Source of the DNA: an uncultured Candidatus Saccharimonas sp.
Lineage (GTDB): Bacteria > Patescibacteriota > Saccharimonadia > Saccharimonadales > OMJO01
NCBI GenBank assembly: GCA_943353165.1
Contig: CALRAM010000001.1
Location: 173,803 to 237,802 of the forward strand
Length of the DNA stretch: 64,000 bases
Direction: 5' to 3'
Made by a program: the position numbers and the translations under genes. Positions 2,824 to 56,413 of this stretch are shown one piece after another; the first letter of the stretch is position 1, and every line of letters starts with the position of its first letter. The notes below the pieces were generated by a model. That model was given only the letters and a program-made list of their open reading frames with translations. It was not told the origin of the DNA and searched no databases.

Positions 2824-2991
2824 GCATTTTGTATAAAAATATACATAAAATGTCTATACTACGACTGCATAAGCAGTTATAATACAATCAGCTAAAGAGG
2901 GACTGGTATAAGAGTAATGTTGTCAAAAAGCTCATATTTTCGGCTATCCGTGCTGGACACGTCTATTCAAAATGCAAAGGTTACAGACTAA

Positions 2992-3705
2992 ATGCCGTAC
3001 CCTCAACGCCTACCCATAATAAACTCTGATGACGGGCAATGGGGCGATATCCTAAATCAGTACCTCAAAAAAGAACATTTTGACGATGGTACCAACAACC
3101 CCGTAAATGGAGGACATCAAACCATCACCATAGTGGCAGGTACGGCTGGTGCTGGTACTGCACCTATAAAATTCGCATCAGGCACGCTGATGACAACTGC
3201 CGAGGCCGGTGCCATGGAGTTCCTGTCTGATAAACTGTACTTTACTATTACAACTGGTACGGTTCGTCGGACCGTAGCTATCTACGATGACAGTAGTGGT
3301 GCTACAGGCGACATCTATTACAGGACAGCTGGCGGTTCTTTTAGCAGGCTAGGGGTAGGTGCTTCGGGAGAAGTCTTGAAGGTTAGCGGAGGGTTGCCTT
3401 CCTGGGGAGTGGTAACCAGCAGCACTTTTTCTACTAGCACGAAAACCGCAGACTATACGATAGCCACGCCAGATACGGTGGTGCTAGTTGACGCTACCGC
3501 TGGAGTCATAGTCATCACTCTGCCCGTAGCCAGCACAGCTAGTGGTTACAGGTTTTTTGTCAAAAAGATAGATTCATCTGCAAACACAGTTACAATAACT
3601 AGATCTGGGGCCGACAACATAGATGGTGGGACCACGGCAGTCATTTCCGTACAGTACACCAGCATAACCATAGTAAGTAACGGAACAAATTGGTTTATAA
3701 TATAA
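2992..3705 (+). CDS. Hypothetical protein, phage tail-fibre-like, no signal peptide
   Basis: 237 aa, Gly/Thr/Ala-rich. The segment AGTAPIKFASGTLMTTAEAGAMEFLSDKLYFT resembles N-terminal regions of phage fibre proteins as I recall them. No signal peptide or TM helix. Confidence 0.4.
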   Translation: MPYPQRLPIINSDDGQWGDILNQYLKKEHFDDGTNNPVNGGHQTITIVAGTAGAGTAPIKFASGTLMTTAEAGAMEFLSDKLYFTITTGTVRRTVAIYDDSSGATGDIYYRTAGGSFSRLGVGASGEVLKVSGGLPSWGVVTSSTFSTSTKTADYTIATPDTVVLVDATAGVIVITLPVASTASGYRFFVKKIDSSANTVTITRSGADNIDGGTTAVISVQYTSITIVSNGTNWFII

Positions 3706-3726: not shown

Positions 3727-4407
3727 ATGTCCTACAATCCAAACAATCCAAATGGTCAAAACACAATGGCAAACTCTGCGCCTGTGACTATAGCCAGCGA
3801 CCAAACAGCCGTGCCTGTCAGTGCCACAACTTTGCCGTTGCCAACTGGTGCAGCTACCGAAACAACGCTGGCTTCTATAAAAGATACAGCAGGTATCAAA
3901 AAGATAACAGATGCATTACCAGCAGGTACAAACCTATTAGGCAAAGTTGGTATAGATCAAACAACACCCGGCACAACAAACCTAGTAGCAGCAAACATTA
4001 CTCAACTAGCGGGGACTGCCACAGCCGTTGGTGTCGGTGCTTCAAGTGCGGGTACAGCACGTGTAGTACAGGCTAATGACGCTGGCAAGACAATTCAATC
4101 TAAAGCTGGAACAGTTGCTATAAGTGGTGATAATACCATTATAAATGCTGGTACTAACAAGCTAAAAATTAAAGCGTTTTCACTAACGACTACATCTACC
4201 GCTGCTGTTACCTGTATATTCAAATCTGGTGCGACCGTACTTTGGCAAGTAGTATTACAAGCACCGACTGGTGTCAGCGTTGGTGCTAACCTGGTAGTAC
4301 CTGCTCCAGATTACATATTTTCAACAGCTAGTGCTACACTATTAAACTTAAACCTAAGCTCGGGACAGACAATACATTATTCAGTATCTTATTACGACGA
4401 GGCATAA
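3727..4407 (+). CDS. Hypothetical protein, phage structural-like, no signal peptide
   Basis: 226 aa with an AAGAGG SD. The Ala/Thr-rich N-terminal half (LPLPTGAATETTLASIKD) is followed by a beta-rich C-terminal domain. It lies 21 nt after the upstream gene and 3 nt before the next. Confidence 0.4.
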   Translation: MSYNPNNPNGQNTMANSAPVTIASDQTAVPVSATTLPLPTGAATETTLASIKDTAGIKKITDALPAGTNLLGKVGIDQTTPGTTNLVAANITQLAGTATAVGVGASSAGTARVVQANDAGKTIQSKAGTVAISGDNTIINAGTNKLKIKAFSLTTTSTAAVTCIFKSGATVLWQVVLQAPTGVSVGANLVVPAPDYIFSTASATLLNLNLSSGQTIHYSVSYYDEA

Positions 4408-4410
4408 CAT

Positions 4411-7400
4411 ATGCAGCAAGACGGAACTATTTATACGGCTAAACCCGCAGATTATACAGAAATTGTTGTCGGTGATGAAAAGCAACCAGAGTTTTATCCC
4501 CGCGTCAAAATTAAGAAATGGGATAATGAAGTCAATCTATCCGTTGGATTAACTAACCCGATTGCTGGATCTAATGTAGTACAAGAGGGCGAACAAATCA
4601 CTTGGTCTAACTCTGATACTGAAGCCCGTTTTTATCCGATTAATGCTTCTGTAATGCCAGCAGCAACAGGTATACGTAGGATAATGAAGAATAAGTTTAT
4701 TCAGCCCTATGAGGCTAGTGCCGAGTACGAGTTTATGCGCCATAGGGCAAATCGACTATTAACAATCATTGACATTGCTACGTACATTACTCCACCGATG
4801 CTTATGCATTTTGATGCCATGCCTACTGGTCGATATACCGAAGTAGAAGATGATGGTTATGCTATAGATTATGATTATGCTGATAAATCGGCATATCATC
4901 CCGATGATATGCTAATGCCAAAAGTGGGAAGGATACCGGCTAACAGGATATATTCTCCTTACACCGCTTCTGCTAACCCTTATTTTGCGGACGAGGGTCT
5001 AGTCAATGTTGATATCCAGTATGGTTTTACTGATGTACCTGGTATTGAAAATGTTTGGTGTGATTCCATTGTTGAAGTTCTAGCAAATCACGGTGTTGAA
5101 GTTATTCGCCCGACCAAGAGAACCAAGTTGTATTTCAAGCACAAAGGGCGGCTAGTCAAGTTTCATAGCGCAGAAAATGCTCGTGGTGTAGTTGCTTGTT
5201 ATATCAATTTGAATTGTATGTACAACAAGGCTTATGATTACTATAAGCCTGGTGTAGAGCACGACGTGCGCGATGAGTATGCTTATGGCTTACAAGTTGC
5301 TTATCCAGAAATAACTATTGATATTGTTAATGAAGTCGTGGGTTTGTTTGCTGAGAAACTATCTCTTCCTATAGACGACACGGAGTATAGTGACGCTGAA
5401 TGGGAATCTATAAGGGCTATAATTCCCAAGCATAAGGATGTTGCTTGGATACGGGAGGCCAAACGACAAGACGCTAACTGGTTTTATACTGTTCCTAGAG
5501 ATGGTTTTGAGTTTGAGTTTGATGTATATGAGAAGCCAGACACAAACATATTTGATCTTTCGATCACTACTAAGGGTTTGGATTTTTATAGACAAGAAGC
5601 CTTAACTCCTGAAGAGATAGAGGAAGGTTTCTCGCGCGACCCTGATGTGGTTGGCAGTTATGCTGTCTATCATTCTGAGATTAAATATAACAACGAGTAT
5701 CAGACTGGTAAAGCTTTTCATATTTATCGCCCAATAGCCAGAGACGCTAACGGAATAGCTTATTTTTGCGATATGGATATTGATATAGAAAATAGCATTA
5801 TGCGAATTACAGTGCCACAAATATTTTTAGACGAAGCCACTTATCCCGTTATCATTGATCCTACCTTTGGTTATGGAAGTGTGGGAGCGAGTGCGACTGG
5901 TTTTGGTAATCAGATTATGGGGACAGTTCAGACTATGCCTGAAGCTGGTTATGTGACCTCTATGACGGCTTATATTTCAACATCCAATAGTTCTGTCGAC
6001 ACATATAATTTTGAGTTTGGACTTTATGATACTTCTGGCAATTACTTGGCTCAGAGCGGCAACACATCAACTACGGCTAATTTGAACTCATGGTCTACTC
6101 TTAATTTAAATTCTGCTTATAATCTACCTTCGGCTTCTTATGTGCTGTCTACGTGGGGTAATATTGTTTCAGGCACTTATTCGTCTCCTTCTACGGGTAT
6201 CATGACTATTGCTTATGATTCTACAGTTGGTAAAACTTCTAAATATGCTTCTGCTGCGTACAGCGCTGATAATTGGCCTTCTACTGTTTCTTTTACAAAT
6301 TGGTCTGATATACAACTTTCTATTTATGCTACGTATACAGTACCAATTGGTTACAAGTGGCCTGTAATGATGGGTAACTCTGCTGCTTTGGCGTCTAGTA
6401 GTGGTGCTAGGTATGCGCCGATGTACGGTGGATCGGCAACGGCCTGGGCAACAAATGCTTCCGCTACGTCTGTCGTTTCAACATCTGATGCATGGTATTC
6501 TGACTTTAGGTTTGATTTAACTACTGCACCTGGTGGTGTTACTGCCAGAACAATGTCTGTTTCTGAAAATATACCAGCAACAATAACTGGTGCAGCAGTA
6601 ACAGCTACTAATTCGACAGATGTAGTATACTTAAATGCTGGAACTAGCCTGTATATTGGAAATGCACCGACTGGTACACCAGCCAGCTCAACTGGTAACA
6701 AATGGCGACTAAATGTAAGCAGTACATATCAGGCTTGGTATTCAACTTCAATCTCAGCCCTGAGTACCACAGCTAATAGGTTTATGGGAGTACAAGATGG
6801 AAAAGGACTTAGTACAACGGCGGCATCTGCTACTTCTACAATGCCTAACGAACCTGGCACAATTAGAAACGCTCGCTGTAAGATCGTAGGTGGCACGCTG
6901 GGTTCAGGCTCTTATACTATCACTTTGGTTAAAGGTGGTATTGATACATCTATTATAATGACGCTAAACAGCGCTACTTCTTTCGCCACCGATACTGATA
7001 CTGTAGCTGTAACTAATAGCAATACACTTTATTGGAAAATTGTACCATCAACCCCAGATGCTGGCGTATGGGTAGCTATATCTTGTGAGTACGAGTCAAC
7101 AACACCAGGGCGTGGAATAATCTTTGGTGGCGTTAGTACCGCTGTGTCTGGTACTACATATTCATCGTCTTTTGATGCCTGGAACGCCACCGAAACGCTT
7201 ATATCCGCTAGGGCAGTTACGCACACAATTATCGCGTTGCGAGCCGATTTATCTGTTGCACCAGGCTCTACCAACACTCGAACGCTAACATTTAGAAAGA
7301 ACGCTGCCAACCAGACACCAGCAATTACAATAACCAGTACAGCAGTAACAGGAAGCTGGTCTGGTAGTCTGGCTGTTGCCACCGATGATTTAATAGATGT

Positions 7401-7524
7401 CCAGCACAGCTCTACTGGTGCTCCAGCTAACTCTAACCTTTTCTGGTCTTATGTATTCACCGCACCAGCAGTTGCAGTTACAGCAACTTACGCCCCTCAA
7501 ATGCTGTTAATGGGTGTTGGGTAG
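4411..7524 (+). CDS. Large (1037 aa) hypothetical protein, phage fibre/receptor-binding-like, with triplicated C-terminal module
   Basis: No signal peptide. The globular N-terminal half includes GKAFHIYRPIARDANG..ATYPVIIDPTFGY. The Ser/Thr/Ala-rich C-terminal half has three ~120-aa modules starting near nt 6502, 6862 and 7234 (DLTTAPGGVTARTMSV vs DLSVAPGSTNTRTLTF). Confidence 0.45.
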   Translation: MQQDGTIYTAKPADYTEIVVGDEKQPEFYPRVKIKKWDNEVNLSVGLTNPIAGSNVVQEGEQITWSNSDTEARFYPINASVMPAATGIRRIMKNKFIQPYEASAEYEFMRHRANRLLTIIDIATYITPPMLMHFDAMPTGRYTEVEDDGYAIDYDYADKSAYHPDDMLMPKVGRIPANRIYSPYTASANPYFADEGLVNVDIQYGFTDVPGIENVWCDSIVEVLANHGVEVIRPTKRTKLYFKHKGRLVKFHSAENARGVVACYINLNCMYNKAYDYYKPGVEHDVRDEYAYGLQVAYPEITIDIVNEVVGLFAEKLSLPIDDTEYSDAEWESIRAIIPKHKDVAWIREAKRQDANWFYTVPRDGFEFEFDVYEKPDTNIFDLSITTKGLDFYRQEALTPEEIEEGFSRDPDVVGSYAVYHSEIKYNNEYQTGKAFHIYRPIARDANGIAYFCDMDIDIENSIMRITVPQIFLDEATYPVIIDPTFGYGSVGASATGFGNQIMGTVQTMPEAGYVTSMTAYISTSNSSVDTYNFEFGLYDTSGNYLAQSGNTSTTANLNSWSTLNLNSAYNLPSASYVLSTWGNIVSGTYSSPSTGIMTIAYDSTVGKTSKYASAAYSADNWPSTVSFTNWSDIQLSIYATYTVPIGYKWPVMMGNSAALASSSGARYAPMYGGSATAWATNASATSVVSTSDAWYSDFRFDLTTAPGGVTARTMSVSENIPATITGAAVTATNSTDVVYLNAGTSLYIGNAPTGTPASSTGNKWRLNVSSTYQAWYSTSISALSTTANRFMGVQDGKGLSTTAASATSTMPNEPGTIRNARCKIVGGTLGSGSYTITLVKGGIDTSIIMTLNSATSFATDTDTVAVTNSNTLYWKIVPSTPDAGVWVAISCEYESTTPGRGIIFGGVSTAVSGTTYSSSFDAWNATETLISARAVTHTIIALRADLSVAPGSTNTRTLTFRKNAANQTPAITITSTAVTGSWSGSLAVATDDLIDVQHSSTGAPANSNLFWSYVFTAPAVAVTATYAPQMLLMGVG

Positions 7525-7562
7525 TTATTGACCAATAGGTCAAGAAGATAAACCATAACTTT

Positions 7563-8471
7563 ATGCAATGCACCATGGAAAATACGTCAACTAAAATCTT
7601 CAGAACAAAATATTTGGCATTGATGGCGCTGGTTTTAGTCAGCCTAATTATTACCTTATCGGTCAAACCAGTATCTGCAGGGAGCCTTTCAATACAGCCA
7701 CTAAGGCAAGAGCTAGAATTAAAACCAGGACAAGCCAATAGCTCCAATATATTAGTGCGCAACACTGGACGGGAACCAGCAACGATAAATATTAGCGCCG
7801 AAACATTTAATGTCATAAACGAGGATTACGACTACTCTTTTGCTCAATCCCAAGATCTGGCCAAATGGGTTCGTTTTGACGAACAAAAAACCACAATATT
7901 ACCAAACCAGAGTTTTAAGTTTAATTTTACTATTAGCGTGCCCATTTCTGCCGAACCGGGAGGCAAATACATCGCCATCTTTAGCACACTCTCCAGTCAA
8001 TCGCTATCCAACATTAATTCTATAGAGAGGGTAGGGCAACTAATCTATCTATCCGTTTCTGGAGCAAGTTCACGCACCGGTTCTGTAATAGGACTGTCTG
8101 TGCCAAAAATCAGTTTCGATTCCAAGTTGGACTGGAGTTTGCGAGTTCACAATACTGGTTCAGCTCATTTCAAAAGCACCATAACCACAAAAACTAGTTA
8201 CTGGCCATTTGGGTCTGTACAAACCGAGAACACAGAACATTTGATATTGCCAAACACCATCCGCCTAATAAAAAATAAAACACAACTGGGCAAGCCGATT
8301 GGACTATACAAAAACCAGATTTCCGCCGGCAAGGGCGACAAACCGCCAGAAGTTCAAACGCACTGGGTTCTGTATCTGCCGCCATTTCAGTTTGTGCTAT
8401 TTGTTTTAGCAATTATTTCTGGCTGGATAACTATTTTAAAAATACGTTCTAAAAAATCTAATAAAACGTAA
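7563..8471 (+). CDS. DUF916/DUF3324-like cell-surface protein (signal peptide, C-terminal TM anchor)
   Basis: Signal peptide (..VKPVSAGS). N-domain SIQPLRQELELKPGQANSSNILVRNTG, then ISVPISAEPGGKYIAIF. C-terminal TM helix plus a Lys-rich tail (ILKIRSKKSNKT). The architecture matches CscA-type WxL-interacting proteins. Confidence 0.55.
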   Translation: MQCTMENTSTKIFRTKYLALMALVLVSLIITLSVKPVSAGSLSIQPLRQELELKPGQANSSNILVRNTGREPATINISAETFNVINEDYDYSFAQSQDLAKWVRFDEQKTTILPNQSFKFNFTISVPISAEPGGKYIAIFSTLSSQSLSNINSIERVGQLIYLSVSGASSRTGSVIGLSVPKISFDSKLDWSLRVHNTGSAHFKSTITTKTSYWPFGSVQTENTEHLILPNTIRLIKNKTQLGKPIGLYKNQISAGKGDKPPEVQTHWVLYLPPFQFVLFVLAIISGWITILKIRSKKSNKT

Positions 8472-27706: not shown

Positions 27707-29242
27707 ATGGAACAAGATGAAGCAATTGCACTCTTAGAATCTGGCCAATCAGTGCTACTGACAGGTGCTGCTGGAACCGGCAAAACTTTTGTACTGCGCA
27801 AATTTATACGCCGAGCCCGCAACGACGGCAAAATTGTATCTGTAACTGCTACCACTGGCTTGGCCGCAACTCATTTAAACGGAGCAACTATACACTCCTG
27901 GGCGGGTATCGGGATCCATGACGAGCTACCACCAAAACATCTGCAAAAAATTAGCAAACAACGACGAGACATAATTTCCAAAACCGACATACTAGTTATA
28001 GACGAGATTAGTATGCTACACGATTTTAGACTAGACATCATAGACACGGTCCTGCGTCATGTTCGAGACAAAGACATGCCTTTTGGCGGGATTCAAATAG
28101 TCCTCTGCGGAGACTTTTTTCAGCTACCGCCAGTCAATCGGAGGGACGCAATGCAGGGTGGTTTTATCACTAACTCAAAAGTTTGGAAAACTGGCTTTAT
28201 GACTGTTTGCTACCTAGAAAAACAATACCGCCAAGCAGGAGACAGCCAGTACGCGGACATCCTAAACGGTATACGCGGCGGAGTACTACGAAGGAGCCAG
28301 CTAGAATCCCTGAAAGCTAGAGCCAATGCCGTCGTAGATCCGTTTATTACCAGCACCAAGCTTCTGACAACAAATGCCGATGTCGATGTAATAAACCTAC
28401 AACACCTAGACAAGTTAAAGTCAAAAGTGCACAGCTATGAAATGCAGACTACTGGTAGCAAAAAATATATTGACCAGCTAAAAAAATCCTGTCTAGCTCC
28501 AGAAACATTGCTTCTCAAAAAAGGTGCCAGCGTAATGTGTATCAAAAATAGCCCTGACAGAAAATATGTTAATGGTTCGCTGGGTATTGTTACAGATTTT
28601 GAAAAATCTACTGATAACCCAATTATTCAGTTAAACACTGGGAAAACAATTACCGTTCGGCCAGATACATGGGAGCTAATAGATGGCGACAAAAAACGGG
28701 CCAGCCTGTCTCAGTTTCCGCTACGTCTAGCCTGGGCAATAACTGTACACAAAAGTCAGGGGATGACACTGGACGATGCCCAAATAGACCTCAGCCGAGC
28801 ATTTGTGGAAGGCATGGGTTACGTTGCCTTGTCTAGAATTAGGGGTCTGAAACACCTAGTGCTGGACGGGTTAAACAACATGGCCCTAAGAGTCAGCCCC
28901 AGCGCAAAACAAATAGATACAGATCTAAGAGAGAGAAGCAAAAAAGCAAAAACATTGCACTCGGAGGTAATAGCTAATTGGAATAAGTCAGAAAAAACCC
29001 GTGTCTCTAAACCAGATAAACCAACAAGCACAGCTGGACCGTGGGCTACAAAACTAGAACAAATGCGACGCAAATACCCAAATGCCTACAGGCCATGGAA
29101 GCCGACAGACGATGTTGAACTAAAAAGATTATTTGATATGAATACCCCCTTGTCGGACTTGACCAAAACTTTCGGCAGACATCCTGGAAGTATCCAAAAA
29201 CGCATAGAAAAACATTACGGAGAGGGCATCGCAATAGTCTGA
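27707..29242 (+). CDS. Pif1/RecD-family (SF1B) DNA helicase
   Basis: Walker A GAAGTGKTF, Walker B VIDEISML, FFQLPPV, and AITVHKSQGMTL near the C-terminus, followed by a basic helical tail. Confidence 0.8.
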   Translation: MEQDEAIALLESGQSVLLTGAAGTGKTFVLRKFIRRARNDGKIVSVTATTGLAATHLNGATIHSWAGIGIHDELPPKHLQKISKQRRDIISKTDILVIDEISMLHDFRLDIIDTVLRHVRDKDMPFGGIQIVLCGDFFQLPPVNRRDAMQGGFITNSKVWKTGFMTVCYLEKQYRQAGDSQYADILNGIRGGVLRRSQLESLKARANAVVDPFITSTKLLTTNADVDVINLQHLDKLKSKVHSYEMQTTGSKKYIDQLKKSCLAPETLLLKKGASVMCIKNSPDRKYVNGSLGIVTDFEKSTDNPIIQLNTGKTITVRPDTWELIDGDKKRASLSQFPLRLAWAITVHKSQGMTLDDAQIDLSRAFVEGMGYVALSRIRGLKHLVLDGLNNMALRVSPSAKQIDTDLRERSKKAKTLHSEVIANWNKSEKTRVSKPDKPTSTAGPWATKLEQMRRKYPNAYRPWKPTDDVELKRLFDMNTPLSDLTKTFGRHPGSIQKRIEKHYGEGIAIV

Positions 29243-40819: not shown

Positions 40820-41455
40820 ATGGGTCTATTTCAAAAAAAGCCACAAGTCAGCAATAGCGCGCCTTTATATACTCTGGGTCTCCAAAAAACCTTTCTGGTT
40901 GTCGGTTTGGGGAATATTGGCAAACGCTACGATAATACTAGGCACAATATCGGATTTGCAGCTGTAGACTATTTCATAACACAACAATCTATGAGCAATT
41001 GGATAGAAAAAAAAGACCTAAAATGCCACCTAACCGCTGGAACAATAGGTAGCACTCGTGTCATAGTCATAAAGCCGACTACTTTCATGAACCTCAGTGG
41101 AGAAGCTGTGCAGGCAACAGCACATTTCTACAAAATAAAACCAGAACAAATCATAGTAGTTCACGACGAACTAGACCTAGATTTTGGGCAAATTAGGGTG
41201 CGCGTAGGCGGTAGCAGTGCCGGACACAACGGCGTTCAGTCGATTATAAACATTGTGGGCGATAATTTTGGAAGACTACGGATTGGCGTTAATAACATCA
41301 ATTCTAACGAATATGATGGAAAAGATTTTGTACTATCAAAATTTAACGATGTCGAGAAGCCGAACATAAAAACCCTGCTCAAAGAAGTAAATTCGATAAT
41401 AATAGAATGTATAGCAGGGGACAATCTGTCCCACGAAACCCGCAGTTTTTTATAG
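40820..41455 (+). CDS. pth: Peptidyl-tRNA hydrolase
   Basis: GLGNIGKRYDNTRHNIGF, MNLSGEAV and GGSSAGHNG motifs. Confidence 0.9.
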   Translation: MGLFQKKPQVSNSAPLYTLGLQKTFLVVGLGNIGKRYDNTRHNIGFAAVDYFITQQSMSNWIEKKDLKCHLTAGTIGSTRVIVIKPTTFMNLSGEAVQATAHFYKIKPEQIIVVHDELDLDFGQIRVRVGGSSAGHNGVQSIINIVGDNFGRLRIGVNNINSNEYDGKDFVLSKFNDVEKPNIKTLLKEVNSIIIECIAGDNLSHETRSFL

Positions 41456-41621
41456 GTTTCAAAAACGCTATTATTTGGATATTTTTGGCATTAAATAAAA
41501 AAAACCTCCAGAGGGTGAGACCCGCCTGTGGCGGGTTGCAAGGCCGGAGCCACGACGGTGGTGAGGTGTGGCTAGCCAAATTCTCAGCAGAAAATTATGG
41601 GTAGCTGGGCACATGTCTATA

Positions 41622-42026
41622 CCAAACAAAAAGAGTCACAAGAGGGGGTGGGCACCGCTTGTGACTCTTTTTGCCCACGAACTAGTCACGGGCTAAAAAC
41701 ACCCTTCAAGCCCACCCAGCGAAGCATCAATCACCTGAAAAATACAGTGTTGTGCCTCCGTCTTGCGACGGTAATCTTTTGGACTCGCTCTATTTAGGCA
41801 CTCACAAAAGTGAGTAGCCACCACTAGTTCCGAAGAACTAATGGGGTGTCTTAAAGGGGTTAGTTTGTCTTAGAACGCCGCCCTGTCAAGCAGGGTAGCT
41901 AGCAAAGTGGAGGGTAACAACTCAGTAGCACGCTCTAAAACAATCTAACAATAATGTTCTCTGTTTAGAGAGAACTGCTAGAATGGGGGTATAAGGTACA
42001 ATAAATTCCATATAGGAACTTACGGA
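41622..42026 (-). ncRNA. Candidate ~400-nt structured RNA of unrecognised class
   Basis: Near-consensus promoter upstream. On the minus strand there is a 10-bp stem with a C(UUCG)G tetraloop (41821-44), a GCAA GNRA hairpin (41758-71), further hairpins at 41797-819, 41881-95 and 41956-75, and a 3' terminator at 41632-68. Several pairs are G-U only on the minus strand (for example 41824/41841 and the 41673-93 stem). No ORF is present. Confidence 0.55.
41632..41672. terminator. Bidirectional intrinsic terminator (11-bp stem)
   Basis: AGAGTCACAAG (41632-42) pairs with CTTGTGACTCT (41658-68). It is flanked by an A-run on the left and a T-run on the right, so it has a U-tract on either strand. Confidence 0.75.
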
Positions 42027-42031
42027 TTGCT

Positions 42032-42060
42032 ATAATAGCAAATATATTACATTATGTCAA
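42032..42060 (-). promoter_or_regulatory. Sigma-70-like promoter driving the minus-strand RNA
   Basis: On the minus strand: TTGACA (42060-42055), 17-nt spacer, TATTAT (42037-42032). Confidence 0.55.
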
Positions 42061-42079
42061 TACCAAACAAGGATTATCA

Positions 42080-42937
42080 ATGAAAGTCAACATGCTAAAG
42101 CTTTCGGACAGTTTGCTGCCAAAAGATTTTAGGCACATAGCTCAGCCACCAAGCCAGTTATTTTACAGAGGCAGTTTGGACGGTTTTGCTAATCGTCCAA
42201 GGTTGGCGGTAGTAGGTAGTCGCCGAGCATCCCCTTATGGTATGGCAGTAACCACCAAGCTAGTTAGCGAATTAGCTAGACAAGGCGTCGTTATAGTCAG
42301 TGGCCTGGCTCTGGGCATTGACAGTATCGCTCACAAGGCAGCACTAGATAGCGGAGGAACTACCGTGGCAGTATTGGCGTGCGGAGTAGACCGTATCTAT
42401 CCTGCCAGCCATACAGCACTGGGCAATCAAATATTATCCAACGGAGGGGCCCTGATTAGCGAGTATCCAGAAGGCACAGAGCCTCTACCGTTTCAGTTTA
42501 TTGCTCGTAATCGCATCATATCGGGTCTCAGCGACGCAGTATTGGTCACAGAAGCCGCCGAAAAGAGCGGTAGCCTACATACGGCCAATTTTGCCCTAGA
42601 TCAAGGCAGAACGGTTCTGGCGGTGCCTGGAAACATAAATAGTCCCTACAGTGTAGGCACAAACAACCTGATAAAGTCAGGCGCCTTAACAGTAACCAAC
42701 TCCAAAGATATTTTGTTGGCTCTGGGACTTGATCCAGAAGAACCGTTGCCAGTAGCTGTTGCAGCCAATAACGAGGAAGCGCTGATACTAAACTTGCTCC
42801 AAAAAGGAATAACTGATTCTGCGCAACTGATGGCCAACAGCAAACTAGATGCCGTAACTTTTAACCAAACCCTGACAATGTTGGAAATTACTGGCAAAAT
42901 ACGTCCATTAGGAGCAGGACACTGGACAAACAAATAG
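42080..42937 (+). CDS. dprA: DNA processing protein DprA
   Basis: Rossmann-like DprA core: VVGSRRASPYG, SGLALGIDSIAHKAAL, GVDRIYP, NRIISGLS. Confidence 0.88.
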   Translation: MKVNMLKLSDSLLPKDFRHIAQPPSQLFYRGSLDGFANRPRLAVVGSRRASPYGMAVTTKLVSELARQGVVIVSGLALGIDSIAHKAALDSGGTTVAVLACGVDRIYPASHTALGNQILSNGGALISEYPEGTEPLPFQFIARNRIISGLSDAVLVTEAAEKSGSLHTANFALDQGRTVLAVPGNINSPYSVGTNNLIKSGALTVTNSKDILLALGLDPEEPLPVAVAANNEEALILNLLQKGITDSAQLMANSKLDAVTFNQTLTMLEITGKIRPLGAGHWTNK

Positions 42938-56363: not shown

Positions 56364-56413
56364 ATAATAGCAAACATCTTGCCTTTTGTCAACCTCTAGC
56401 ATTATGCTGCTTG

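Follow-up and report, generated by a model that had tools for sequence, protein, structure and literature searches.

A probable new family of large structured RNAs in Saccharibacteria with a 3' hairpin apex that recurs in phages

Introduction

Large and complex orphan RNAs are rare; OLE, ROOL, GOLLD and raiA led to new ribonucleoproteins (RNPs) and new RNA architectures. These RNAs are several hundred nucleotides (nt) long, adopt a covarying fold of several domains with a nearly invariant core and variable peripheral hairpins, and are restricted to certain lineages. OLE works as an RNP with dedicated proteins. Here, an RNA gene with these same properties is described, which lies between the genes pth and dprA on a stretch of 64,000 nt (the window) from an uncultured Candidatus Saccharimonas sp. 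(contig CALRAM010000001.1, positions 173,803 to 237,802). In contrast to the four RNAs, it does not match any of their Rfam models, its host is an ultra-small episymbiont with a genome of approximately 1 Mb, and it combines a fixed chromosomal position and a conserved promoter of its own with a 3' hairpin apex that is shared with phages.

Other well-studied RNAs offer further points of comparison. Bacterial class A RNase P RNA is similar in size and conservation, contains long-range helices enclosing domains and occurs in single copy, but the RNA described here lacks the P4 consensus and the P1/P2 closing helix, and does not match RF00010 at E<=10. RNAIII from Staphylococcus, which is also large (514 nt), and RsaE/RoxS likewise present several unpaired C-rich loop motifs and have their own promoter and terminator. 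However, no homology to these regulators exists, helices and long blocks are conserved, the Shine-Dalgarno sequences of the present organism are weak, and no peptide is encoded. Lambda boxB and the Hfq-binding terminator module of enterobacterial small RNAs are portable protein-binding hairpins. The terminator hairpin of the present RNA is comparable in that a fixed apex is combined with a freely varying stem and recurs on unrelated phage transcripts; in contrast, this apex is 17 nt long and C-rich, does not resemble these modules, and its binding partner is hypothetical.

Saccharibacteria possess genomes of approximately 1 Mb that are about 94% coding, and according to a TM7x transcriptome study no small RNA has been validated in them (bioRxiv 10.1101/2022.03.25.485537). 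Because these genomes are so small and so densely coding, a non-coding gene of about 400 nt at one locus is likely to be of central importance. An RNA family of this kind, which in addition carries a portable hairpin common to phages, was unexpected in this lineage, and present genome annotation leaves the locus blank.

Results

The pth-dprA gap contains a predicted transcription unit on the minus strand

The genes pth (positions 40820-41455, plus strand) and dprA (42080-42937, plus strand) are separated by 624 bp. The longest open reading frame (ORF) in this gap comprises 66 amino acids, and independent gene callers left the gap blank in five of six other assemblies of the same organism. A preliminary description of the window had considered the gap to be free of a credible ORF, which agrees with this length, and had located a near-consensus promoter on its minus strand. 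A promoter scan recovered this element (TTGACA-17-TATTAT, 42060-42032) with 11 matches out of 12 and a TG extension, TGnTAnnAT. It is maintained in homologs: TTGAC of the -35 hexamer is invariant in all 41 aligned sequences and at least 95% conserved in 144 copies, and the -10 consensus in all homologs is TTTGCTAnAATnGCAA. The terminator proposed in the preliminary description was found as well, as a hairpin at 41672-41628 followed by a U-tract; its stem does not consist of 11 bp but of ten pairs formed by GAGUCACAAG and CUUGUGACUC (41667-41658 with 41642-41633) plus five A-U pairs. This terminator is symmetric, with an A-tract on its 5' side and a U-tract on its 3' side, and faces the convergent pth gene. 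In the alignments of 41 and of 144 copies, the promoter consensus GTATTGACA...TTTGCTAnAATnGCAA and the terminator both lie within the conserved parts of the unit.

The minus strand folds with -159.1 kcal/mol, which corresponds to z = -8.3 compared to dinucleotide shuffles; the value for the plus strand is z = -4.35. The assignment to the minus strand is based on the conserved promoter and terminator and, as had been suggested from the sequence of the window, on the many G-U pairs that would be A-C on the opposite strand. The segment 42027-41624 is thus read as a self-contained promoter-to-terminator transcription unit with a sigma-70-type promoter and an intrinsic terminator, giving a predicted transcript whose homologs are 329-498 nt long (median 403). 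None of the ORFs in these homologs is conserved; the longest have a median length of 53 amino acids and occur equally on either strand, and a protein-coding gene was rejected for these reasons. An interpretation as a 3' untranslated region of pth was likewise rejected, because the RNA comes from the other strand, under an invariant promoter of its own.

The RNA is conserved among Saccharibacteria

For comparison, 80 genome loci were retrieved by means of Pth, approximately 50 of them from Saccharibacteria, with Pth sequences 43-60% identical to the query; the remaining 30 were pth loci from other lineages. With the gap sequence as a single nhmmer query, the stretch 41620-42067 was matched in approximately 42 Saccharibacteria loci with E-values of 1e-19 to 1e-42 and in constant orientation. 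A profile was then built from 41 aligned copies and detected one copy in each of 45 Saccharibacteria loci (E 1e-55 to 1e-105). With both searches taken together, the conserved region extends over 41621-42073. The five Saccharibacteria loci that were not matched offer less than 2 kb of sequence downstream of pth. Neither a profile hidden Markov model nor a covariance model gave a match in the 30 loci from other lineages, a result of little weight since synteny is not expected there. The gene order engA-pth-[RNA, antisense]-dprA-topA is maintained across the Saccharibacteria loci, and the RNA is retained when dprA is missing and when it is separated from pth by other genes.

The pattern GTTACCCTCC-N38-68-TAAYCCCTTTAA, which combines two blocks of the RNA, was run against metagenome contigs and found in at least 120 of them. 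All 120 are true homologs that share the gene context, and 106 of them have full length. The 144 distinct full-length copies show a median pairwise identity of 63%, yet 63 columns are invariant and 110 are conserved to at least 95%. Judged from these comparisons, the proteins encoded next to the RNA are much less conserved than the RNA itself, the adjacent Pth being only about 55% identical (50-60%), and the family appears to be confined to Saccharibacteria.

Covariation indicates a fold of two domains

The elements of the consensus fold are listed in Table 1. For the 50 pairs evaluated in the 41-sequence alignment, 94.9% of the pair cells are paired, compared to 35-50% with slid partners, and 26 of the 50 pairs show compensatory changes. 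The covariation score is 0.315, as opposed to 0.123 after shuffling and 0.055-0.079 with slid partners. The 30 pairs of the 5' domain are paired in 93.5% of the cells of the same alignment, with compensatory changes in 15 and a score of 0.216 (shuffled: 0.138). A covariance-model alignment of 95 distinct sequences yielded 95.2%, 19 of 30 pairs and a score of 0.250 (shuffled: 0.125). In each set, none of 500 shuffles matched the observed percentage of paired cells or the observed score.

The fold shown by these data consists of two domains. In the 5' domain, a helix of 17 bp (P3) closes a three-way junction; its pairs are formed in 98.8-98.9% of the cells, and 8-10 of the 17 pairs show compensatory changes. 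One arm of the junction presents GTTGTTACCCTCCAC, which is invariant in 40 of 41 sequences; the helix of this arm is 95-98% paired, and folds computed for individual sequences are concordant. The 5' hairpin P1 shows compensatory changes in eight of nine pairs (95 sequences). The 3' domain is closed by a long-range helix with the consensus strands CCCCUUUAAC and GUUGAAGGG. Its nine pairs are 97.6% paired and mostly invariant, and one of them changes from CG to GC in five sequences. The interior of this domain further contains a conserved GAGYGAGCC-UAAAU-GGU element (41771-41790) and a covarying hairpin GCA../..UGC. Two interior helices (helices 3 and 4) have compensatory changes in 12 of 12 pairs. 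In the terminator stem, such changes occur in five of six pairs, and 98.4% of the cells are paired. Peripheral hairpins are gained and lost among the homologs while the core and the loops stay unchanged. Three C-rich motifs are unpaired in the consensus fold, namely CCCCC (41985-89), UGUUACCCUCC (41909-19) and CCCACCCCC (41644-52). The UCUAAC end of the C-rich strand can alternatively pair with GUUAGA (41944-41949), and the rare substitutions in UCUAAC that are visible in the alignment are transitions that preserve wobble pairing with GUUAGA. An alternative helix is therefore possible at this place.

Five local helices had been listed in the preliminary description. The GCAA hairpin 41758-71, the helix 41797-819, the helices 41881-95 and 41956-75 and the UUCG-capped helix 41821-44 can all be read from the sequence, and the minimum-free-energy fold contains them as well. 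One of the ten pairs of the UUCG-capped helix is a G-U pair, so that it is not strictly perfect. Two pseudoknot-like pairings had been put forward in addition. The complementarity of 41645-52 and 41710-17 is real and involves GGGUGGGC (41717-10) and GCCCACCC (41652-45). The tip of the terminator hairpin has its complement in GGGUGGG, and GGUGGG is conserved in 142 of 144 copies. The second pairing, 41604-09 with 41715-20, uses a non-conserved 3' module and lacks comparative support. The pseudoknot GGGGUGGG:CCCACCCC is regarded as hypothetical.

Table 1. Predicted features of the RNA gene and its surroundings (window coordinates)
Feature	Position	Strand	Remarks
-35 hexamer TTGACA of the RNA promoter	42055..42060	-	promoter scan
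Extended -10 TGCTATTAT of the RNA	42032..42040	-	17 nt downstream of the -35 hexamer
Possible extended -10 TGCTATAAT for dprA	42028..42036	+	read from the sequence; inferred only
RNA gene	41624..42027	-	about 403 nt; from predicted start, about 5-7 nt past the -10, to end of U-tract
5' hairpin P1, GUAAGUUCC-UAUAU-GGAAUUUAU	42001..42023	-	hairpin of differing sequence here in every homolog
C-rich single strand, consensus GCACCUUAUA-CCCCCA-UUCUAAC	41977..42000	-	conserved
Optional variable hairpin between UCUAAC and GUUAGA	41956..41975	-	present, absent or expanded in homologs; also found in terminator-like scan
P3, 5' strand GUUAGAUUGUUUUAGAGCG	41931..41949	-	pairs with 41859-41877
Three-way-junction arm, 4-bp stem AAGU/ACUU (window: GAGU/ACUU)	41905..41923	-	caps invariant 11-nt loop UGUUACCCUCC
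Second junction arm, variable hairpin CCCUG-CUUGA-CAGGG	41881..41895	-	hairpin of differing sequence here in all homologs
P3, 3' strand CGUUCUAAGACAAACUAAC	41859..41877	-	pairs with 41931-41949; consensus CGCUCUAAAACAnACUAAC
Long-range helix, 5' strand CCCCUUUAAG	41850..41859	-	closes 3' domain; pairs with 41700-41710
3'-domain interior	41721..41849	-	variable hairpins 41821-44, 41797-819, 41758-71
G-rich segment GGGUGGGC-UUGAAGGGUG	41700..41717	-	3' part pairs with 41850-41859
Variable hairpin between 3' domain and terminator	41673..41693	-	in most homologs; absent in about 9 of 41; contained in the minimum-free-energy fold
Intrinsic terminator	41624..41672	-	covarying stem, 17-nt apex 41642-41658, U-tract 41624-41632
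Facultative second module	41497..41620	-	about 15 loci (profile search)

The RNA does not match known families

A search of the whole window with Rfam 15 at gathering score yielded three tRNAs only. At E<=10, the gap gave only spurious matches to microRNA-type hairpins, and no family recurred among 20 homologs. ARAGORN likewise reported three tRNAs and no transfer-messenger RNA (tmRNA) in the window. The models of OLE, ROOL, GOLLD, raiA and HEARO do not match the gap or the 20 homologs at E<=10.

In RNase P RNA, tmRNA, 6S RNA and signal recognition particle (SRP) RNA, the two ends pair with each other and thereby close the molecule. Such end pairing of the P1/P2 type was not found in the present RNA, whose 5' end forms its own covarying hairpin and whose 3' end forms its own terminator. 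The RNase P models RF00010 and RF00011 gave no match to the window at gathering score and none to the gap or the 20 homologs at E<=10, and the P4 strands GGAAAGUCC and ACAGAA...GGCUUA are absent from the conserved blocks of the 41 and the 144 homologs. With respect to tmRNA, the conserved blocks do not contain a tRNA-like 3' end, no Rfam tmRNA model matches, and no ORF is conserved. 6S RNA is a rod-like helix of about 180 nt with a large central bubble, closed by both ends. The RNA described here has a branched, two-domain fold of about 400 nt with ends that do not pair with each other and does not match RF00013 at E<=10. SRP RNA models did not match the window, the gap or the 20 homologs. A group I intron is contradicted by the RNA's own promoter and terminator, the lack of tRNA halves at its ends and the lack of a match to RF00028.

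In the searchable literature, no earlier description of the RNA or of its apex sequence was found; the only TM7 motif there, also the sole one in a survey of 224 motifs, is the small cis-regulatory lysM-TM7 leader. By every test applied, the RNA represents a new family. The preliminary description had seen no signature of RNase P RNA, tmRNA or SRP RNA and had suggested a lineage-specific large non-coding RNA. Rfam, ARAGORN and the conserved blocks concur with the former statement. The latter is borne out by the missing Rfam family for the gap and the 20 homologs, by the occurrence in 45 Saccharibacteria genome loci and at least 120 metagenome contigs, and by the compensatory changes in 26 of 50 pairs.

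The apex of the terminator hairpin recurs in phages

The 17-nt apex GCGGUGCCCACCCCCUC of the terminator hairpin is identical in 143 of 144 copies of the RNA and occurs only once in the 64-kb window, even if three mismatches are allowed. The exact sequence is present in 53 viral contigs (viral loci L208-L259), compared to a chance expectation of about 4. As a background estimate, the 15-mers GTTGTTACCCTCCAC and GGTGGGTTGAAGGGT gave 57 and 62 viral matches with flanks unrelated to the RNA context; occurrences of these other blocks in phages were rejected as chance or unrelated. For the apex, the flanks form at least six complementary pairs in 47 of 54 occurrences. The eight pairs that flank the apex are 92.7% paired over 48 distinct occurrences, versus 41.8% after shuffling; the covariation score is 1.25 versus 0.23, and many G-U pairs are found in this sense.

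The contigs belong to genuine phages, as they encode terminase, endolysin and virion proteins. Most of the hairpins lie between genes and are read in the direction of their neighbours, for example upstream of terminase, after endolysin or between tRNA genes. Approximately ten are followed by a U-tract, and several of these also have a -10 box shortly upstream; the latter look like tiny promoter-to-terminator phage RNAs. Similarity between the phage contigs and the host RNA is confined to the hairpin, and no Rfam family covers the phage hairpins. Taken together, the apex GCGGUGCCCACCCCCUC with its unrelated covarying stems looks like an undescribed portable RNA hairpin motif. The links of these phages to Saccharibacteria are thin but real. 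First, a PIF1-like helicase encoded in the window (27707-29242, plus strand) is 44% identical over 412 amino acids to a helicase on a hairpin-bearing phage contig (L248, 8499-9722).

Second, one contig that is classed as viral (L207; IMGVR_UViG_3300049064_000004, 3814-8444) carries a complete RNA gene at 7929-8374 on the plus strand. This gene adjoins genes for a RecT-like protein and a PD-(D/E)XK-FtsK protein, and a second hairpin with the same apex is located at 6863-6879 on the opposite strand. A mobile element seems to occupy the usual position of dprA in this case.

Discussion

The locus very probably harbours a real, independently transcribed and conserved structured RNA of an uncatalogued family. 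For its function, the explanation that is favoured overall, and held to be reasonably likely, is that of an uncatalogued RNA gene of about 400 nt of the RNP type, with loops and 3' hairpin as docking sites. An RNP-type RNA is favoured because neither helices nor loops change whereas the peripheral hairpins do, a pattern that is closer to RNP or ribozyme cores than to antisense regulators. The RNA would act in trans as a folded and abundant molecule, and its invariant C-rich loops and the apex of the 3' hairpin would be the sites at which a conserved partner docks, be it a protein or a G-rich RNA. The 3' hairpin would serve as a portable handle, because phages bear the same apex on stems of their own. 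Taken for itself, a mode of action as RNP or scaffold and not by simple antisense pairing is plausible, at slightly less than even odds.

A further step, which we consider doubtful, is that the RNA and the phage hairpins form one recognition system with the RNA as its central cellular component. The apex would then be the handle of a Saccharibacteria-specific RNA-binding factor or would pair with the RNA's own GGGGUGGG, and phages would place it on their transcripts in order to recruit or titrate this factor or to dock onto the host RNA. If this were true, it would constitute a new RNP or RNA-RNA sensing system between ultra-small episymbiotic bacteria and their phages. The shared apex can be used as an experimental bait for the binding partner and as a marker of phages whose hosts may belong to this uncultured group.

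Several points weigh against the favoured explanation. Start and end of the RNA are predictions, and the RNP-type mode of action is deduced from the pattern of conservation only. The pseudoknot GGGGUGGG:CCCACCCC shows no covariation, as both sides are invariant, and two homologs (L163 and L108) alter its G-rich side without compensation. The distribution is that of the sampled Saccharibacteria clade, with cultured oral strains outside the sample, and absence from Rfam and from the searchable literature is no proof that the RNA is undescribed.

Among the other explanations, the main one, although unlikely, is a regulator that acts in trans by base pairing through several C-rich seed loops, similar to Staphylococcus RNAIII or RsaE/RoxS. 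The unpaired segments CCCCC, CCCUCC and CCCACCCCC would pair with G-rich sites such as the Shine-Dalgarno regions of many mRNAs. The consensus fold indeed leaves at least three invariant C-rich segments unpaired, the molecule itself offers a single conserved G-rich strand to pair with them, and the loop UGUUACCCUCC includes the anti-Shine-Dalgarno core CCUCC. However, Shine-Dalgarno sequences are rarely used in the window: of 53 upstream regions, two contain GGAGG, four GGAG and none GGGG, and many genes have a TATAAT box directly upstream of the ATG and look leaderless. An anti-Shine-Dalgarno sponge is weakened by this rarity of G-rich ribosome-binding sites. Moreover, invariance spans blocks of 15-19 nt and whole helices, which is beyond the needs of a seed, and no complementary target was found within the 64-kb window. 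A cis-acting or antisense device, in which the pth-dprA gap is a bidirectional terminator and insulator with a promoter competing with that of dprA and the transcript itself is functionless, is very improbable. It agrees with the symmetric terminator facing pth and with the position of the promoter, whose -10 overlaps the plus-strand TGCTATAAT 44 nt before the dprA start codon, the RNA start usually lying about 53 nt from the start of dprA. Yet 63 invariant positions and 26 covarying pairs over 400 nt exceed what a terminator and a promoter require, and the RNA is kept where dprA is missing or where other genes separate it from pth. The size of the RNA would also fit RNase P RNA or tmRNA, and 10 of 35 complete genomes of the candidate phyla radiation needed lowered thresholds for the detection of RNase P RNA (Lui et al. 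2021, PMC8172020). A highly diverged RNase P RNA, tmRNA, 6S or SRP RNA that was missed by standard models is nevertheless extremely improbable: the searches of the gap and the 20 homologs at E<=10 and the ARAGORN search of the window gave no match, P4 signatures, a tRNA-like 3' end and a terminal closing helix are lacking, an RNase P RNA of the RF00010 type was obtained from all 35 genomes of that study including two Saccharimonadia, and the NCBI annotation pipeline lists two standard non-coding RNAs in an oral Saccharibacterium (PMC8830319). For RNase P RNA in particular, model score, missing P4 signatures and topology, each end folding on itself, led to rejection.

A large ribozyme, self-processing or acting on another substrate, would be a special case of the favoured RNP-type explanation. 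It is suggested by the multi-domain fold, in which long-range helices, invariant nucleotides at the junction and possibly a pseudoknot occur, and by a conservation comparable to that of RNase P RNA, but is given little credence; no similarity to any Rfam ribozyme family was found in the window, the gap or the 20 homologs, and there is no hint of a substrate. Phages integrate at tRNA and tmRNA genes, and the 3' hairpin might in an analogous manner be an attachment site: phage copies of the apex would be attP sites, the phages would insert themselves at the 3' terminus of the RNA gene, and the segment 41497-41620 would be an integration scar. This is rather improbable. In its favour, this segment resembles the 3' half of terminators from other lineages, several loci have insertions of variable genes directly 3' of the RNA, the RNA gene on the viral contig L207 adjoins RecT and FtsK-nuclease genes, and at one locus (L011) a stray copy of the module adjoins a tRNA-Glu gene and a degenerate tRNA-like repeat. 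However, no integrase adjoins any of the phage hairpins examined and host similarity is limited to the hairpin, which led to the rejection of attP sites. Furthermore, the phage hairpins occur in many contexts, in the sense of the flanking genes and with G-U pairs, which indicates an RNA element; the second hairpin of L207 is inverted and not a direct repeat; and the genes inserted in the host encode lipoprotein-like proteins and not recombinases.

Additional observations

A hairpin-rich segment of about 120 nt, 41497-41620, had been noted behind the terminator in the preliminary description. The segment exists as described, but it does not belong to the conserved RNA and is a separate and patchy module. 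Its core consists of CUUGCGA, a covarying hairpin, CUCACCCUCU, GGAGGCUC and a U-tract. In approximately 15 loci, the module lies directly 3' of the main RNA on the same strand, sometimes in two tandem copies, L011 being the exception. While folding energies leave its strand undecided, this shared orientation places it on the strand of the RNA. Its 3' half is so similar to that of the main terminator in other lineages that the profile of the module also matches a main terminator. It is best described as a facultative, putative second terminator-like module, which in the window would yield a read-through form of approximately 530 nt. In L011 (4137-4385), the stray copy is found next to a tRNA-Glu(CUC) gene and the degenerate tRNA-like repeat, a setting that recalls the scars left by integration at tRNA genes.

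The region 3' of the RNA gene seems to act as a hotspot of gene acquisition. In L003 (10806-13149), L026 (10639-13060), L109 (3568-6427), L198 (3691-5315) and others, 1-3 kb of inserted variable genes separate pth from the 3' end of the RNA. These genes are on the strand of the RNA, and many encode proteins with lipoprotein-type signal peptides. Within the RNA, insertions of 60-215 nt were observed in L002 (10695-11314), L022 (6575-7300) and L011 (10885-11382), which split the profile matches. An insertion of about 50 nt in the optional hairpin is common to L006, L030, L032, L010 and L020 and carries the conserved UAAUCAUUUUUUAAUC. In a minority subtype (L042, L016, L031, L048 and L013), the interior of the 3' domain is built differently, with CCCCUUUAACCCCGCAUUUCC... 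and with UCAAGGUGGG replacing CUGGGGUGGG; the closing helix and the terminator apex are retained. One metagenome contig (L203) contains two full copies of the RNA, at 978-1420 on the minus strand and at 2864-3309 on the plus strand, inverted around a dprA fragment; this pair is either a real duplication or an assembly artefact.

The -10 element of the RNA is situated in a palindrome, TTGCTAnnnTAGCAA (42026-42040, both strands), which is conserved in homologs. The promoters of the RNA and of dprA may be arranged back to back, overlapping and competing, or the palindrome may be an operator. A second perfect promoter of the type TTGACA-17-TGCTATTAT is found at 56364-56392 on the minus strand, directly upstream of a protein-coding ORF. 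Upstream of the 53 long ORFs of the window, many TATAAT-like boxes are located about 10-20 nt from the ATG, with no Shine-Dalgarno sequence, which suggests that leaderless mRNAs or mRNAs with very short leaders are frequent in the window.

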